Part shown: positions 4,677-53,706 of the stretch, one piece after another
How the letters are laid out: every line of letters starts with the position of its first letter
Position numbering within the stretch: position 1 is the first letter of the stretch
From: Candidatus Micrarchaeota archaeon
GTDB taxonomy: Archaea; Micrarchaeota; Micrarchaeia; Micrarchaeales; CABMGC01
Assembly (NCBI GenBank): GCA_021850625.1
Contig: JAJZLJ010000023.1
Coordinates: 10,219 to 74,218, forward strand
Reading direction: 5' to 3'
DNA: 64,000 bases
Notes under the pieces: model-generated
The model's database searches: none
What the model saw: only the letters and a program-made list of their open reading frames with translations
Told to the model about the DNA's origin: nothing
Made by a program: the position numbers and the translations under genes

Positions 4677-5237
4677 TTGAATTTTGGTGGTAATATAAAA
4701 GAAAATAGGCATTTTCATGGCTTCAATTATTATCGTGAGGCTGAAGAACAATTTATAAAAGTGATTGAGGAAAACAGAGAATACTTTAAGGCAGAAGAGG
4801 CAGTGGATTTGGGAGCTGGAGGTGGAACATTTTCAAAACTGCTTAGCAAGTATGTAAGAAAGCTTTACAGCCTCGATGTTTCAGAAGATGCCATTGAGGC
4901 AATGAAAAAGAATCTTGCTGGACTGAAAAATATAGATATAATAAAGAGTGAAGAGACGAAGATGCCCTTCCGCGCTTCTAGTGTAGATCTTGTGTTTACA
5001 GCGAATTCATTCCATGACTTGCCAAAGGGCTACGAGAAGGAGATAAATCGTGTGCTCAAGCACGGGGGCAGGTTCATAGACCTTGATTGGAAAAATGTGC
5101 CAACAGAACATGGCCCTCCTATTAATATAAGGCTTTCAGAGCAAGAGGTAAAGATGAGGCTTGAACCATACAAACTGAAAGAAATCAAAAAAGTGGATAT
5201 TGGCACGCACTACATGGTAATATTTTTAAAGTCATAA
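4677..5237 (+). CDS. Class I SAM-dependent methyltransferase (Methyltransf_11-like)
   Basis: TTG start. Motif I VDLGAGGGTFS, followed by SLDVSEDAI and a LKHGGRFIDLD motif. Confidence 0.7.
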   Translation: MNFGGNIKENRHFHGFNYYREAEEQFIKVIEENREYFKAEEAVDLGAGGGTFSKLLSKYVRKLYSLDVSEDAIEAMKKNLAGLKNIDIIKSEETKMPFRASSVDLVFTANSFHDLPKGYEKEINRVLKHGGRFIDLDWKNVPTEHGPPINIRLSEQEVKMRLEPYKLKEIKKVDIGTHYMVIFLKS

Positions 5238-12380: not shown

Positions 12381-12397
12381 TTTAAACATGTGAACAA

Positions 12398-14794
12398 ATG
12401 TCTATTAAAAATAAATCCTCTAAAAAACTACATGCTCAAAACGCGATAGAGATGCTTACTACCTACGGCTGGGCTATAATAATAGTAGCAATAGCATTAG
12501 TTATTCTGTATGCGCTGGGGGTATTTAATCCACAAACTTCTACAGGAACTATCTGCGCAATAAATCAGGGTATTCAGTGTTCTAATGTGCTTCTTTCAAC
12601 AGATGGTTTTCTTACATTTACATTATTTCAGAATCAATACAGTTCTATAAATATATCTGCAATAGGGTGTTCTGAAAATTTCTCAAACGAACATTTACAA
12701 AATCTTCCTCCACAAAATCAGATAACTATTCCTGGTGGAAGAGGCCATATTTTTACTGTACAATGTTATAATAAATCCGGAAGTTTTTCTGGCGGTTTAG
12801 GTTCTCAATTAAATGCAACAATATATATAAAATATATAAATAATAATGGCAATTTTCCATATTCTGTTTCTGGTAAACTATTAACTAAAGTATCATACGT
12901 TATTACCTCAACAACATCCTCATCCTCTTCTTCATCATCAACCACGTTCTTATCCTCTTCAAGTTCCTCATCTTCATCCTCATCTACAACATATGTTTCA
13001 TCTTCAAGTTCATCCTCCTCTTCTTCTTCATCATCAACCACGTTCTTATCTTCTTCAAGTTCCTCATCTTCATCCTCATCTACAACATATGTTTCATCTT
13101 CAAGTTCATCCTCATCCTCTTCTTCATCATCAACCACTTTCTTATCCTCTTCAAGTTCCTCATCTTCATCCTCATCTACAACATATGTTTCATCTTCAAG
13201 TTCATCCTCATCCTCTTCTTCATCATCAACCACGTTCTTATCCTCTTCAAGTTCCTCATCTTCATCCTCATCTACAACATATGTTTCATCTTCAAGTTCA
13301 TCCTCATCCTCTTCTTCATCATCAACCACGTTCTTATCCTCCTCAAGTTCCTCATCTACAACATCCTCTTTAACAACAACTACGCCACCACAATCATCTG
13401 CGTTTTCTTCGTATTACAGTTATTCAGATGTACTTCTAGTATGCAATCCTGCAAGCACCGAAAGCATGCAGGTATGTAATTATTTTACAACCGCTAGAGA
13501 AGCACAAGGCTTTAATCCATCATATGTTGTAGATTTAAGCGGCATACCTACCTCGGAAACAGTAAATGACATAGTTACAAACGAAATATTATCACAGGTC
13601 AAAGCAAAGATAACCTCTATAGGACTCGGAAAAATAGATTATATTGTAACTACATACGGCGTTCCATTAATAGATTATCCAGAACCGTCCTGTTCTGGAG
13701 AAGGCGGCGTATCTATAGATGCGTTGTTAGCAAATAATCTTACAGATTTTAATATTTGCAGTGTAATTCCTGGTTATAGTGTATATGCAACCTCTCCTTA
13801 TGGCTTGCCTAGTAATCCATATGCTGGAGCCATCTCTAGTTATACTACACAAAGTGCTCTACAAAATTCTGAATTTTCATATAATAAATATCATATATAC
13901 GAAGTCACAAGGCTTGACGGTCCTACATTAAATAGCATTTATAATCTAATCAAAAATGCTGGCAAAGCAGGAAGCGCCTCAGGATATATTTTGTTTAATC
14001 CCTATACAACCGCTAGCAATATTCAGAACGTTCTGCCTTTTTTTGAAATATCCTATGCAGAACAGTATCTAGAATCGATAAATGTAAAGTATCAAGAAGT
14101 AGATACTAGTTTTGTAACTGGTGTAGGTGGCCTTAGTGGCTATCTTTCTACAGGCTCTAATTGTGGATGTACGGCAGGGCAGAACTCCAGTACATGGAAC
14201 CTCGGTTTTGTACCGGGCGCAGTTGGCGAAACACTTGTTTCTACAAGTGCTAGAACACTTATCCAATATCCATGGACTGGAGGCCAATCACTTATTTCAG
14301 ACCTCGTCATGGACAACATAACTGGGGTTATAGGTGCGGTGAGCGAGCCTTGGTCTAGCGCATTTGATCCTGCTACCTCTTTATTTGATAGCTACTTTAG
14401 CGGTTTTAATCTGGCAGACAGTTTTTATGATGGACAAAGTAACCTCGCGTGGAAAATTACTATAATAGGAGATCCTAAAGCCCATATAACTTCATTAACC
14501 TCTGTTGAATTTACAACCTCCATCTCTCCAACCTCTGTGGTTTTAAATCCTGGACAATCTACAACGTTTACCTCAACAGTTTCGGATATACGTTTTAGCG
14601 AATATGGGTATACTTATCAATGGTATTCGGGGAACTCACCAACCTGTGCCGATGATACTGCAATATCTGGAGCAACATCCTCTACCTATACATATACTGC
14701 TATTTCTCCATATAAAAAATACATCTGTTTAGGCGTTACTGACGGATCTCTTCAAGTAACATTCTCTCCTACAACAAGCATAACTGTTCAGTAA
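12398..14794 (+). CDS. Large surface protein with class III (type IV pilin-like, DUF361-type) signal peptide, poly-Ser tandem repeats, an unknown globular domain and a C-terminal Ig-like domain
   Basis: The N-terminus KKLHAQNAIEMLTTYGWAIIIVAIALVIL matches the archaeal prepilin pattern (basic - A/G-Q - xSxEyL - hydrophobic). aa about 170-325 are S(9-13)TT[FY][LV] repeats. The C-terminus YTYQWYSGNSPTCADDTAISGATSSTYTYT is Ig-like. Confidence 0.65.
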   Translation: MSIKNKSSKKLHAQNAIEMLTTYGWAIIIVAIALVILYALGVFNPQTSTGTICAINQGIQCSNVLLSTDGFLTFTLFQNQYSSINISAIGCSENFSNEHLQNLPPQNQITIPGGRGHIFTVQCYNKSGSFSGGLGSQLNATIYIKYINNNGNFPYSVSGKLLTKVSYVITSTTSSSSSSSSTTFLSSSSSSSSSSSTTYVSSSSSSSSSSSSSTTFLSSSSSSSSSSSTTYVSSSSSSSSSSSSSTTFLSSSSSSSSSSSTTYVSSSSSSSSSSSSSTTFLSSSSSSSSSSSTTYVSSSSSSSSSSSSSTTFLSSSSSSSTTSSLTTTTPPQSSAFSSYYSYSDVLLVCNPASTESMQVCNYFTTAREAQGFNPSYVVDLSGIPTSETVNDIVTNEILSQVKAKITSIGLGKIDYIVTTYGVPLIDYPEPSCSGEGGVSIDALLANNLTDFNICSVIPGYSVYATSPYGLPSNPYAGAISSYTTQSALQNSEFSYNKYHIYEVTRLDGPTLNSIYNLIKNAGKAGSASGYILFNPYTTASNIQNVLPFFEISYAEQYLESINVKYQEVDTSFVTGVGGLSGYLSTGSNCGCTAGQNSSTWNLGFVPGAVGETLVSTSARTLIQYPWTGGQSLISDLVMDNITGVIGAVSEPWSSAFDPATSLFDSYFSGFNLADSFYDGQSNLAWKITIIGDPKAHITSLTSVEFTTSISPTSVVLNPGQSTTFTSTVSDIRFSEYGYTYQWYSGNSPTCADDTAISGATSSTYTYTAISPYKKYICLGVTDGSLQVTFSPTTSITVQ
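12905..13365 (+). repeat. Tandem repeat, 96-bp unit, about 4 full + 2 partial copies, in-frame (32 aa poly-Ser/TTF/TTY unit)
   Basis: The marker accac[gt]tt recurs at 12941, 13037, 13133, 13229 and 13325, an exact 96-bp period. Full copies differ at only 1-4 positions. Confidence 0.9.
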
Positions 14795-16384: not shown

Positions 16385-17581
16385 CTAATTTTCTTTAAAA
16401 AGATTCTTTTCTATCATTTCCTTTATTTTTTCAGGCTGATACGATAACTTTATAAGTTTAGTATGTCCTCTAATTCCTTTGCCTGATTCATGACTTATTA
16501 TTATTCCCTGCATCTCTAAATCTGCAATATATCTTCTGTATAATCTTGTTGTTTTTACATCTTTATGTAATGATTCAACAATCGAGTTATATCTGCTATA
16601 AATCTCTCCACTTAAAAGAAAAGAGTCATTATTTTCATCCAGTTTTTTGTATCTGCCTCCGGTTATAGACATTAACGCTATGGCATAAACTATAAGTTTT
16701 TGATGCTCAGGGAGCATTCCTATAACTTCATACGCTATCTCCTCTTCGGCAAACTTTGCAGCTTCAGTAATCTCATTAACTCCTACAGAGCTCTGATTTT
16801 TATTATCTGCTATCTCCCCTGCCTTTGTAATTATTTTTAGGGCAAGTCGTGCATCACCGCTATCCTTCGCAGCTATAGCAGCGGCAAGATTTACACACGC
16901 CGGATCCACCACGTTAGGCTTAAAGCCGCTCGCAACCCTATCCTTAATTATGGCCGCAAGCTCTTCAGAGTTATATGGCGGGAAGACAAACTCGTTTTCA
17001 TAAAGTGTAGAAAGGCTTCTAGGATCTAGAACCTCCTTAAATGAGATTTTATTAGAGACGCCTATTATTGTAACTCCACCTGATTTAATATCGCTATTAG
17101 ATCTTGTAAGCGTATATATAAGATCATCCAAATCCCTTACTATATCTAGTTCATCAAGCACAACAACAAGTATCTTTCCGTCTTCTTCTATCCAGTTTAT
17201 TATCTTTTCATAAATATCTGTTATTCCATAGCCACGTTTTGCATACTGCGGTATATGATCGCTTGCTATTTTACTAAGAACTCTATACCTTGAGTTATAA
17301 ATCCTACAATTTACGTATGTAATCTTTGCCTTAATTATTGGAAGTTCTCTTACCTTATCTACCACGTGCTTTATACAAGAAGTCTTTCCGGTGCCTGTTT
17401 TTCCATAGATAAAAACATTTCTGCCTCTTTCTCCTCTAAGCGAAGGAGTAAGAGACTTTTCTATTTCATTTATCTGTCTTTCCCTAAAGAGCAGATGTTT
17501 AGGAACATAATGTGGAGATAGAACCTCACGGTTTGCAAAAACGGCCGATTCTTTAAAAAGATCTGCAAAGGGCTCCACCAT
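16385..17581 (-). CDS. cdc6: Orc1/Cdc6 replication initiator
   Basis: AAA+ Walker A IYGKTGTGKTS, Walker B VVVLDELD, and a C-terminal winged-helix-like region. The N-terminus has the typical SPHYVPKHLLFRERQI. Confidence 0.9.
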   Translation of the reverse strand: MVEPFADLFKESAVFANREVLSPHYVPKHLLFRERQINEIEKSLTPSLRGERGRNVFIYGKTGTGKTSCIKHVVDKVRELPIIKAKITYVNCRIYNSRYRVLSKIASDHIPQYAKRGYGITDIYEKIINWIEEDGKILVVVLDELDIVRDLDDLIYTLTRSNSDIKSGGVTIIGVSNKISFKEVLDPRSLSTLYENEFVFPPYNSEELAAIIKDRVASGFKPNVVDPACVNLAAAIAAKDSGDARLALKIITKAGEIADNKNQSSVGVNEITEAAKFAEEEIAYEVIGMLPEHQKLIVYAIALMSITGGRYKKLDENNDSFLLSGEIYSRYNSIVESLHKDVKTTRLYRRYIADLEMQGIIISHESGKGIRGHTKLIKLSYQPEKIKEMIEKNLFKEN

Positions 17582-17585
17582 AAAC

Positions 17586-18383
17586 TCAACCTATTATCTG
17601 CTTAACTATCTTAATATACTCCTCTTTTATCTCTTCGTTTTTCATCACAGGCACTATTCCTCTATCACTCATCTCTCCAAAATCAGAATTATTTTTTATA
17701 CTTCCAAGAAAAGGAGCTTCTAGAGCATCGGATACCTCGATTCCTCCTCGCGGATCATTATTAGACATATTTTCTATAACTCCTAATATCGATACGCCAA
17801 GTCTTTTTGCCATCATTCCAGAACGTATTGCATTTATTGCAGGTATGTGCTGAGGCGTTGTTACTATTATAAAGCCTTTCAAATCCAAAAGTTGTATTAT
17901 AGATAATGGTGCATCAGAGGTTCCTGGTGGAAGGTCTATTATTAAATAATCAAGCTCTCCCCACTCTGTATTTTCTAAGAACTCACTTACCATCTTGCCT
18001 ATCATGGGTCCTCTCCAAATTATAGGTTTTTTATTATCATCTACAAACATAGCAGTAGAAAGAATCTTTATACCATCCATATCGAATGGTTTAATTGGAT
18101 ATTCTCCTGAAGCTTCGTATTTTATTCCCAAGAACATGCATACATTTGGGCAATCTATATCTGCATCAAGAAGACCTACTTTATATCCCTTATTTTTAAG
18201 TGTAAATGCTATATTCACCGCGGTTGTTGTTTTTCCAACACCTCCCTTTGCGCTGTATATTCCTATTTTATTTTTTATACCTGCTAATCTTTCCTTTAAT
18301 CTTTTTCTCTGTTCTATTACTTTTAATATTGAAGGATGAGCAACAGTAACCTTAGCGTCGCCTATCTGGGCTTCCTGTGTTAT
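17586..18383 (-). CDS. Mrp/MinD-family P-loop ATPase (lacks the Mrp CxxC motif); start codon uncertain, proposed ATA at 18383
   Basis: Motifs LLDADIDCPN, IIDLPPGTSD, GVIENMS. The frame is open up to 18437. The deviant Walker A KIGIYSAKGGVGKTTTA is encoded at about 18220-18270, upstream of the only canonical start (GTG 18218). GGTG-N5-ATA lies at 18392-18381. Confidence 0.7.
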   Translation of the reverse strand: MTQEAQIGDAKVTVAHPSILKVIEQRKRLKERLAGIKNKIGIYSAKGGVGKTTTAVNIAFTLKNKGYKVGLLDADIDCPNVCMFLGIKYEASGEYPIKPFDMDGIKILSTAMFVDDNKKPIIWRGPMIGKMVSEFLENTEWGELDYLIIDLPPGTSDAPLSIIQLLDLKGFIIVTTPQHIPAINAIRSGMMAKRLGVSILGVIENMSNNDPRGGIEVSDALEAPFLGSIKNNSDFGEMSDRGIVPVMKNEEIKEEYIKIVKQIIG

Positions 18384-18497
18384 TATATCACCAGATATAA
18401 TGTCTCCTTTACTAATATATTGTTTTTGTAATGAAAATTAGAATATGCTATAACATGTATCAACACAACAGGCTGAAAATAAATGCTTAATTGTATT

Positions 18498-18977
18498 TTA
18501 TTCCTTTCTAAACAACTCTGCAAGATGGCTAAAAAAAGAGACACCCATAATACTTATTCCTGATAATATTAACATATCACTCGCTATCTTCACAGTATCA
18601 ATAAAAGTGCCATTTTTAACAGTTTCAGTAAAGGTGTTTACCACTGGGAGCGCGTTTGGACTTGTTCTACTTACAAATGCAGAAGCAATTCCTATTCCTG
18701 CTGGAATTGCTACTCCCCAAAAAAGAGAGCCTATACCCTCTCCAATTGTAATTCCGGTATCTTTACTCTTATAACTATTTTTATTAATATTTACTAATGC
18801 GTTATGAATTATGTTGCTTGCCGTTCCTACTGTAGCAACGCTCAAGCCAGCACACGGTATAATTAACTCTGCGTCAAAGCCTAAATATCTCTTGCTTGCT
18901 ACCGCAACACCTGTCAAAGCAACAGTTCCAATTGCAACTCTTCTATAATTTTTTATAGAAATTGTCATATATTTCAC
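18498..18977 (-). CDS. Hypothetical membrane protein
   Basis: Long ORF with several glycine-rich hydrophobic segments. Stop/start spacing of 2 nt with the upstream ORF suggests an operon. Confidence 0.4.
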   Translation of the reverse strand: MKYMTISIKNYRRVAIGTVALTGVAVASKRYLGFDAELIIPCAGLSVATVGTASNIIHNALVNINKNSYKSKDTGITIGEGIGSLFWGVAIPAGIGIASAFVSRTSPNALPVVNTFTETVKNGTFIDTVKIASDMLILSGISIMGVSFFSHLAELFRKE

Positions 18978-27217: not shown

Positions 27218-27226
27218 TAATATACT

Positions 27227-27312
27227 GCGCCAGTCATCTAGCCTGGTAGGATACGAGCTTCCCAATATCTAGGAATAAGCTCGACGCTCGGGTTCAAATC
27301 CCGACTGGCGCA
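27227..27312 (+). tRNA. tRNA-Gly(CCC) with a 13-nt intron at the canonical 37/38 position
   Basis: Acceptor gcgccag/ctggcgc + A. D arm atct-agcctggta-ggat. Anticodon stem cgagc/gctcg enclosing ttCCCa + 13 extra nt + a. T arm tcggg-ttcaaat-cccga. Confidence 0.85.
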
Positions 27313-27413
27313 TAATTGAATTATAATTTCTTGAAAAAGAATTATTTTCCTAATTAAAAATTCATCTAAAATTATTTATTAATTATTATTTATATTTTAT
27401 TTTTCAACTGTCT

Positions 27414-50673: not shown

Positions 50674-50770
50674 CGGGCCCGGCGGGATATTCAAAACTAT
50701 TATTAGTTTTTTTGAACCCGCGGCCATCAGATTAGAAGTCTGCCGCTCTATCCAAGCTGAGCTACGGGCC
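50674..50770 (-). tRNA. tRNA-Arg(UCU) with a 23-nt non-canonical intron in the T-loop
   Basis: Minus-strand read: gggcccg-ta-gctc-agcttggata-gagc-g-gcaga-cuUCUaa-tctga-tggcc-gcggg-[ttcaaa + 23 nt + t]-cccgc-cgggccc-g. The insert contains the hairpin aaaacta-ataa-tagtttt. Confidence 0.8.
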
Positions 50771-50778
50771 CTCCTATA

Positions 50779-52856: not shown

Positions 52857-52893
52857 TTAACTTAATTTACATTTTATATTTAAGTGTGATTTT

Positions 52894-53706
52894 ATAACAG
52901 AAAAAATATTATCTAAGGACATAACTTATTCCTCTGGAGGATATGAAATTTCAGCATATCTTACCTATCCCGAAAAAGGAACAAATCCTGCAGTTATATT
53001 AATTCATGATATTTTTGGTCAAAGTAAGCATATGCGTGATGTATCAGCAGATTTGGCAAAAGAAGGTTATGTTGTCCTTACACCTAATTTATACTCTTCA
53101 GAACACTTTTCAAACATACTTACTCCTGAAAATATAAAAGAGGCAATGTCTTTTATGTTTTCTATACCTCTTGGGAAACAACGTGATCCTGATTATCGCA
53201 CTGCAGCTCTAAACAAGTTAGAACCAAAACAAAAAGAAACAATAGTCTCTGTTTTTTCAAAACTAATTGAAAATAGACCTGTAGACGAATTTGTTGATTA
53301 TCTTATCTCTGGAATAGATTATTTATCATCTACGAAATTAACCTCTGGTAAGGTAGGTTGTTGGGGCTTCTGTTTTGGAGGAAATATCTCCGCTAATCTT
53401 GCTTGTACTGGCAAAATTGATGCTGCAGTAATATTCTATGGTGAAAATCCTCCTATAGACAAGATAAAAAATATAAACGGAGCTATTCTCGGAATTTATG
53501 GTGGAGAAGATATGAGAATAAATCAAACACTAGATGTGTTTGTCAAAGAACTCGTATTGACAAAGAAGGAGTTTGATATAAAAGTTTATCCTGGAGTGCA
53601 TCATGCGTTTTTCAATAATACTACTGAAAAAACATACAATAAGGCAGCCGCACAAGATGCATGGACTACTGTATTAACATTTTTTGATAAAAAGCTAAAG
53701 AAATAA
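52894..53706 (+). CDS. Dienelactone hydrolase family protein; start uncertain, proposed ATA at 52894
   Basis: ITYSSGGYEISAYLTYPEKGTNPAVILIHDIFGQSKHMRDVSADLAKEGYVVLTPNLY, GCWGFCFGG, HHAF. The frame is open from 52861. The first canonical start is ATG at 53032, inside the conserved fold. GTG-N5-ATA lies at 52886-52896. Confidence 0.7.
   Translation: MTEKILSKDITYSSGGYEISAYLTYPEKGTNPAVILIHDIFGQSKHMRDVSADLAKEGYVVLTPNLYSSEHFSNILTPENIKEAMSFMFSIPLGKQRDPDYRTAALNKLEPKQKETIVSVFSKLIENRPVDEFVDYLISGIDYLSSTKLTSGKVGCWGFCFGGNISANLACTGKIDAAVIFYGENPPIDKIKNINGAILGIYGGEDMRINQTLDVFVKELVLTKKEFDIKVYPGVHHAFFNNTTEKTYNKAAAQDAWTTVLTFFDKKLKK

Follow-up and report, generated by a model that had tools for sequence, protein, structure and literature searches.

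A probable AUA start codon behind a Shine-Dalgarno-like signal in an Mrp-like ATPase gene of Micrarchaeota

We analysed a stretch of 64,000 nucleotides (nt) of contig JAJZLJ010000023.1 (the window), which comes from a low-GC genome (about 33%) of the Micrarchaeota, a lineage of the DPANN archaea, and we focus here on the start of a gene for an Mrp-like P-loop ATPase on its minus strand. We consider it likely that the mRNA of this gene is translated from the AUA at 18383-18381, and that the same mechanism acts at ATA 52894 of a dienelactone hydrolase (DLH) gene and probably also at ATA 4695 of a methyltransferase gene. AUA initiation at the ATPase had been proposed in an earlier note on this DNA, and it is supported by a canonical GTG at the same position in an outgroup, by the invariance of the 12-mer GGTGATATAATA in related genomes, by the onset of coding constraint directly after the ATA, by a spacing rule that holds at canonical starts, and by the hydrolase and methyltransferase cases.

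Reading frame and start signal of the ATPase gene

The minus-strand frame is open from a TAA at 18440-18438 to a TGA at 17588-17586, a length of 283 codons. Its first ATG, GTG or TTG is a GTG at codon 73 (18218-18216), downstream of the Walker A motif KGGVGKTT, which is encoded at about 18251-18225. All statements of the earlier note on the sequence of this locus hold: it had named GTG 18218 as the only canonical start of the frame, had described the frame as open upstream of it to the TAA, and had placed the P-loop 5' of every canonical start. A match to the Pfam family PF10609 (ParA/NUBPL P-loop NTPase) with E = 1.6e-68 spans residues 54-281 when the frame is translated from stop to stop. 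A record of 210 amino acids (P0049), present in NCBI and ENA, was located on seven contigs, and public lengths of relatives of the ATPase are 252 or 281 amino acids. In the window as well as in the related loci L004, L023 and L024, no canonical codon lies between the promoter-like block upstream of the gene and the P-loop.

The signal that precedes canonical starts in this genome was derived from 55 open reading frames (ORFs) of the window, by taking the first canonical start of each and counting GTG at every upstream offset. In 11 of the 55, a GTG precedes the start by exactly 5 nt (0.38 expected per offset), and all remaining offsets from 0 to 22 nt together gave only three occurrences. The usual motif at these starts is GGTGA/T or TGTGAT, and the 3' end of archaeal 16S rRNA carries AUCACC, the complement of GGTGAT. 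At the ATPase, such a Shine-Dalgarno (SD)-like GGTGAT (18392-18387) is followed by a spacer ATA (18386-18384) and then by the proposed start ATA, in the arrangement GGTG-ATATA-ATA. The count bears out the remark of the earlier note that ATA 18383 shares with canonical genes a GGTG followed by a short spacer. A motif scan found the GTG-N5 spacing at ATA 18383, 52894 and 4695, and the codon at all three SD-led sites is ATA instead of ATG, GTG or TTG.

A scan of a genome collection yielded 14 Micrarchaeota orthologues of the ATPase, and a protein search combined with contig look-ups gave additional ones. Eight sequences form one clade (the window, L023, L024, L025, L001, L002, L003 and L004; comparisons of eight include the window), with amino acid identities of 75-94% and a near-saturated third-position identity of 0.45-0.65. 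Despite this divergence, GGTGATATAATA is unchanged in 8 of 8 sequences. Among the codons of the ATPase whose amino acid is invariant, 15 of 158 (9.5%) are also invariant in their nucleotides, and among the codons that encode Ile throughout it is 3 of 17. As ordinary coding sequence, four successive invariant codons (GGT GAT ATA ATA) would be expected with a chance of about 1e-4, and on this ground the 12-mer is under constraint as a nucleotide signal. Split by codon position, the 40 codons that follow the ATA have 8/7/36 variable columns and the 60 nt before the motif have 8/12/12, which shows that protein-coding constraint starts right after the ATA and is absent upstream. Moreover, L025 and L026 carry an in-frame TGA four codons 5' of the GGT.

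The earlier note had suggested looking for a canonical start in the ATA column of orthologues, and the outcome was favourable. The outgroup L011 reads GGT GAT ATA GTG, so that a canonical GTG stands exactly at the position of the proposed ATA. More distant orthologues start with an ATG 4-7 nt downstream of GGAGG or AGGTG. Counted from the ATA, 16 residues precede the conserved HPSILKV, compared with 13-17 in the ATG-started orthologues. The first canonical codon further downstream, in turn, differs by orthologue and is found at codon 31, 73, 82 or 100.

These data also bear on whether the gene could be a pseudogene, or could give rise only to a truncated product from GTG 18218, with the open frame upstream being a relic. 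A product of exactly 210 amino acids is indeed what gene callers put out. However, the frame of 265 codons from the ATA is intact in all eight clade sequences, the variation over the N-terminal region including the P-loop is biased towards third positions, and GTG 18218 is not conserved as a start; a P-loop NTPase without Walker A would, furthermore, be non-functional. We regard a truncated or decayed gene as highly improbable, and the intact frames together with purifying selection over the N-terminal region contradict the pseudogene that the earlier note had kept in mind.

Even less probability, close to none, is left for a sequencing or assembly error that turned an ATG into ATA, or for a reassignment of AUA to Met. 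An error has some prior plausibility in metagenome-assembled genomes (MAGs), and this is all that speaks for it. The NCBI MAG, at least four independent assemblies of ENA samples and seven other genomes all share the ATA; GCA_021847825.1 agrees with the window at the DLH locus, and several independent ENA assemblies do so at both loci. The possibility of an ATG at 18383, raised in the earlier note, was thus answered by independent assemblies, all of which carry ATA. With regard to reassignment, ATA fills 10 of 11 columns of conserved Ile in distant orthologues and none of the conserved Met columns, of which six of seven are ATG. Judged by these columns, AUA is an ordinary Ile codon in elongation here.

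Two further genes with ATA at the start position

The hydrolase gene shows the same pattern, in agreement with the earlier note, which had pointed to a second conserved gene in the region 52861-53031. In the stop-to-stop ORF 52861-53706 the first ATG is codon 57, while the Pfam domain DLH extends over residues 30-277. The start context reads TGTG-ATTTT-ATA, and the Met starts of orthologues align at most two residues from ATA 52894. A canonical start is also absent in a second genome: the closest orthologue with available DNA (L019, 70% identity) has the context TGTGAG-TTT-ATC-ATA and reaches its first canonical codon only within the domain. The same assembly, GCA_009712145.1, also holds the ATA-type ATPase gene L024. 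In the public record the hydrolase of the window has 224 instead of 270 amino acids.

For the methyltransferase, orthologous proteins begin with MKGN..., which aligns to IKEN of the window. The DNA of L030 and L031 reads ttGGTGgcaat ATG where the window has ttGGTGgtaat ATA, and L032 likewise has ATG. Gene callers choose the in-frame TTG 4677, which has no SD motif, and obtain the protein P0164 of 186 amino acids. Since this TTG, six codons upstream, could rescue translation, we take the methyltransferase as supportive and not as decisive.

Pfam checks of ten other ORFs of the window whose frames stay open far upstream agreed with canonical starts in every case. In about 100 kb of related loci scanned for conserved ORFs without a start, only the Mrp and DLH orthologues were flagged. 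A metagenome scan with the DLH protein gave no match, and a scan for more members of the ATA clade with a DNA pattern returned only L024, which was already known. Overall, the ATA-start pattern is gene-specific but recurrent. The coordinates of the features are compiled in Table 1.

Table 1. Positions of the proposed ATA-start genes, their signals and the neighbouring gene in the window
Feature	Position	Strand	Basis
Proposed full-length Mrp/NUBPL-like P-loop ATPase coding sequence	17586..18383	-	265 codons + TGA, from ATA 18383-18381
Proposed AUA initiation codon	18381..18383	-	In frame, 5 nt after GGTG; invariant in 8 sequences; GTG in L011
Shine-Dalgarno-like GGTGAT	18387..18392	-	GTG-N5-start rule, 11/55 vs 0.38; 12-mer GGTGATATAATA invariant
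Conserved promoter-like block TTACAAAAACAATATATTA (TTACAAAAACAATATAWTA; putative B recognition element (BRE)/TATA)	18413..18431	-	About 30 nt 5' of ATA; kept in all 8 sequences
Deviant Walker A AKGGVGKTT, motif KIGIYSAKGGVGKTTTAVN	18225..18251 (about)	-	Translation; upstream of first canonical start
GTG taken as start by public gene callers	18216..18218	-	210-amino-acid product without P-loop
orc1/cdc6 gene	16385..17581	-	Pfam Cdc6 domains; ATG 4 nt after ATPase stop
Dienelactone hydrolase coding sequence, proposed start ATA 52894-52896	52894..53706	+	TGTGAT 52885-52890, GTG-N5-ATA
Class I S-adenosylmethionine (SAM) methyltransferase coding sequence, probable start ATA 4695-4697	4695..5237	+	GGTG 4686-4689; GGTG-GTAAT-ATA

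Mechanism, alternative starts and opposing evidence

In the mechanism that we favour, GGUGAU would pair with the 3' end of 16S rRNA, as at canonical genes of the same genome, and this pairing would bring the AUA, 5 nt downstream of GGUG, into the P site. The initiator Met-tRNA with its anticodon CAU would then form pairs at the first two bases, A and U, and a C:A mismatch at the third. What is made would be the full-length P-loop protein, probably at reduced efficiency, and ATA would act as a fourth, SD-dependent start codon in this Micrarchaeota clade. We infer the initiating tRNA, the N-terminal residue, the efficiency, the promoter and the transcription start from sequence.

The region upstream of the start contains a promoter-like block, whose surroundings vary without three-base periodicity in the eight-sequence alignment; a conserved block also occupies the equivalent region of L001-L006 and L023-L025. 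A similar CAAAACAATATAAG block lies at a similar distance before the ATG-started orthologues L005 and L006. The block may function as a BRE/TATA promoter. From its position, transcription would be expected to begin close to the GGTG, so that the leader would measure no more than about 8-10 nt and carry the SD motif at its very 5' end. A similar geometry of promoter and SD motif was seen at gene 10573.

In another route, a leaderless or very short-leader start would take place at the GTG within GGTGAT. A mini-ORF of two to three codons would be translated, its stop overlapping the ATA, and would be followed by reinitiation or by a +2 slip on AUAUA. The SD GTG does open a mini-ORF with a stop that overlaps the ATA in all three ATA genes (GTG-ATA-TAA at the ATPase, GTG-ATT-TTA-TAA at the hydrolase and GTG-GTA-ATA-TAA at the methyltransferase), and the TATA-like block, which we estimate to lie about 23-30 nt upstream of GGTG, would be compatible with transcription starting near that GTG. 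However, the overlap follows automatically from the GTG-N5 spacing when the second codon starts with A, and it is the same in canonical ATG-A genes (GGTGAAAAAATGA) and not in ATG-T or ATG-C genes. Hence the mini-ORF is not a required feature. Moreover, a +2 slip on AUAUA is impossible at the hydrolase, where the sequence is UUAUAA, and reinitiation itself would need AUA to be recognised as a start. The mini-ORF route demands a second mechanism although the ordinary SD rule suffices, and we judge it very unlikely.

Another non-canonical codon of the frame might serve as the start in place of ATA 18383, namely the first ATA (18386-18384), the Ile codon of AQIGD (ATA 18362-18360, which is ATT or ATG in orthologues), or the upstream ATT of L004. 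This is unlikely in our view, though less so than the mini-ORF route. The spacer ATA is invariant as well, L025 has an ATG at the AQ[I/M]GD codon that was used by a gene caller (P0048), and NCBI annotated an ATT at codon 7 of the L004 ORF. On the other hand, the spacing rule and the GTG of L011 both favour the second ATA. The AQIGD codon is not preceded by the GTG-N5 motif and changes among ATA, ATT and ATG like an ordinary Ile/Met codon, and the upstream ATT lies within the promoter-like block in non-periodic sequence that is, in L025, separated from the gene by the in-frame TGA. With each of these alternatives, in addition, most lineages would again have a non-canonical start of the AUH type.

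The NCBI pipeline gave the L004 orthologue (JBMFWW010000019.1, P0047, 276 amino acids) the ATT start inside the promoter-like block, which means that the pipeline, too, saw no canonical start in L004. The ATT is probably the wrong non-canonical codon.

Several canonical codons and one coupling mechanism were considered and rejected. The upstream TTG (codon 2 in L001, L023, L024 and L027), which gene callers use, lies inside the promoter-like block and is TTA in other orthologues. The upstream TTG and the ATT of L004 are, in L025, cut off from the gene by a TGA and are located in a region without coding periodicity. Translational coupling from an ORF of 53 amino acids (18383-18544) that ends at the ATA was dismissed as well, as this ORF is not conserved and has a TAA four codons before the GTG in L025.

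A number of observations limit the case for AUA initiation from 18383 or weigh against it. Seven further GTG-N5-ATA sites were found by the motif scan deep inside ORFs of the window, and for this reason the motif by itself proves nothing and the comparative data have to carry the argument. The pattern is limited to two or three of about 58 genes in the 64 kb. In some orthologues, canonical in-frame codons further down would preserve the P-loop: L001-L003 have such a GTG at codon 31, and L025 has GTG or ATG at codons 11 or 13. These codons alternate synonymously with GTT, GTA, ATA and ATT in other sequences, and GTG codon 31 and ATG codon 13 were rejected as true starts on this ground. A simple weak-start model explains neither the strict invariance of the spacer ATA 18386-18384 nor the fact that the start ATA was never turned into ATG in eight lineages. 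From bacteria it is known that ATA is a weak start, with the order ATG > ATA > ATT in Listeria reporters (PMC13068326), and that it is only rarely annotated as a start (Hecht et al., bioRxiv 10.1101/063800).

A more general reading would be that a family-level Micrarchaeota clade has AUA as a regular fourth start codon, which selection maintains and which serves SD-led genes at a frequency of several percent. The frequency is based on 3 of about 58 genes of the window, or on 3 of 14 starts with GTG-N5. We put this forward tentatively, as a serious possibility against which we lean slightly. If it is true, the preservation of AUA over near-saturated divergence would imply either selection for throttled translation or an altered third-base discrimination, through aIF1 or through the state of C34 in the initiator tRNA. 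The retention of ATA may reflect selection for a low dosage of the ATPase. Over long divergence ATA was strictly kept and not replaced by ATG, which suggests selection for the weak start as such, possibly to set the dosage of the ATPase and of the tightly linked orc1/cdc6 gene.

Protein family, gene neighbourhood and comparison with known systems

By its motifs, the protein falls among the deviant Walker A ATPases, in the Mrp/NBP35/ApbC-like branch. It contains the deviant Walker A with the signature lysine (KGGxGK[ST]) as SAKGGVGKTT, and the Mrp signature with the Walker B region (W..LD.L.iD.PPGT.D) as WGELDYLIIDLPPGTSDA, which aligns to 2ph1. The C-terminal CxxC, which ligates the bridging Fe-S (iron-sulphur) cluster in these carriers, is by contrast absent. 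The earlier note had observed that NNDPRGG follows ENMS in its place, and the translation confirms this; the 14 Micrarchaeota orthologue proteins that were read lack the CxxC as well. ENMSNNDPRGG is devoid of Cys, the only two Cys of the protein are found in DADIDCPNVCMF, and alignments to solved Fe-S carrier homologues stop at ENMS. The score for PF10609 is 231 bits (cut-off 27.1), while the NCBIfam models MrpORP and ApbC give 212.8 (cut-off 450) and 164.3 (cut-off 348), respectively. The ATPase should not be labelled a bona fide Fe-S carrier.

With the Mrp/NBP35/ApbC carriers (PDB 2ph1, 3kb1, 8zkc; PF10609) the ATPase thus shares the KGGVGKT deviant Walker A, the DxD, the WGELDYLIIDLPPGTSD signature and the P-loop fold family. 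It differs from them in that the cluster-binding CxxC after ENMS is missing, the NCBIfam equivalog cut-offs are not reached, and the gene adjoins orc1/cdc6. The pair of ATPase and orc1/cdc6 is kept in every relative examined (loci L020-L031), with 1-4 nt from stop to start, and it persists in L028 despite a rearranged order of the flanking genes. This constant adjacency suggests a functional tie with replication or segregation, in preference to one with Fe-S delivery.

Three other features of the window were recorded. A tRNA-like gene at 50677-50771 on the minus strand, with the anticodon TCT (Arg), seems to be interrupted in its T-loop by about 23 inserted nt (GGGTTCAAA[AAAACTAATAATAGTTTTGAAT]ATCCCGCC); its Rfam match covers only 50713-50771, and ARAGORN made no call. 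The insertion is probably a non-canonical archaeal tRNA intron. At 27226-27313 on the plus strand, ARAGORN predicts an 88-nt tRNA-Trp (CCA), probably containing an intron, for which Rfam gave no report at the gathering threshold. The ORF 12386-14794 includes a tandem repeat at 12915-13357 (plus strand) with a period of 96 nt and copies that are about 97% identical, as seen from staggered blastn self-hits.

The start codon matters for annotation, as gene finders that accept only ATG, GTG and TTG cut the N-termini of such genes, and public entries are shortened. Truncated entries skew functional and metabolic inference for poorly known DPANN genomes. If our reading is true, this would be a comparatively well-supported near-cognate primary start of conserved archaeal genes. 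Since the archaeal start factors are eukaryote-like, the case would also be a natural setting in which to study how a mismatch at the third position is accepted by aIF1, aIF2 and the initiator tRNA once the P site is fixed by a strong SD motif.

Starts of the AUH type have precedents in bacteria. The E. coli genes infC and pcnB start with AUU, and ATA, ATT and ATC starts are annotated in bacteria. In Listeria, start variants from ATG to ATA were described for rsbW (PMC13068326). Common to these and to our case are an SD-led gene, a start that differs from AUG at the third base, an expected weaker translation, and an interchange of ATG and ATA between related genomes, here at the methyltransferase. 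In contrast to bacteria, archaeal start selection involves aIF1, aIF1A and aIF2 and not IF3, the ATA is here invariant over near-saturated synonymous divergence, and no autoregulatory logic like that of infC is evident.

In mitochondria, AUA initiation relies on an initiator/elongator tRNA-Met with a modified C34. The codon is the same, and it would likewise be read by a tRNA with the anticodon CAU at initiation. However, AUA means Met in elongation there and Ile here, and mitochondrial mRNAs are mostly leaderless, whereas an SD motif at a fixed spacing is found here.

For archaea, SD initiation of the Sulfolobus type with GGUGA was reportedly described by Tolstrup et al. in 2000 and Torarinsson et al. 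in 2005. The GGUGA(U) of our genes likewise is complementary to the 3' end of 16S rRNA and stands at a fixed short distance 5' of the start. The known cases have AUG, GUG or UUG, whereas here the signal precedes AUA.

In the literature searched, ATA starts were not reported for Micrarchaeota or any other archaea, and the only related remark comes from ribosome profiling in Haloferax volcanii, where near-cognate codons made up about 30% of the putative alternative initiation sites and were not considered further by the authors (PMC7261190). Those sites are a hint that near-cognate codons can serve archaeal ribosomes for initiation. They are alternative or minor ones, whereas the AUA is here the only plausible primary start of conserved genes. 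What is new looks like a conserved, SD-dependent AUA primary start in a clade of DPANN archaea, of a kind that is known from bacteria and mitochondria.

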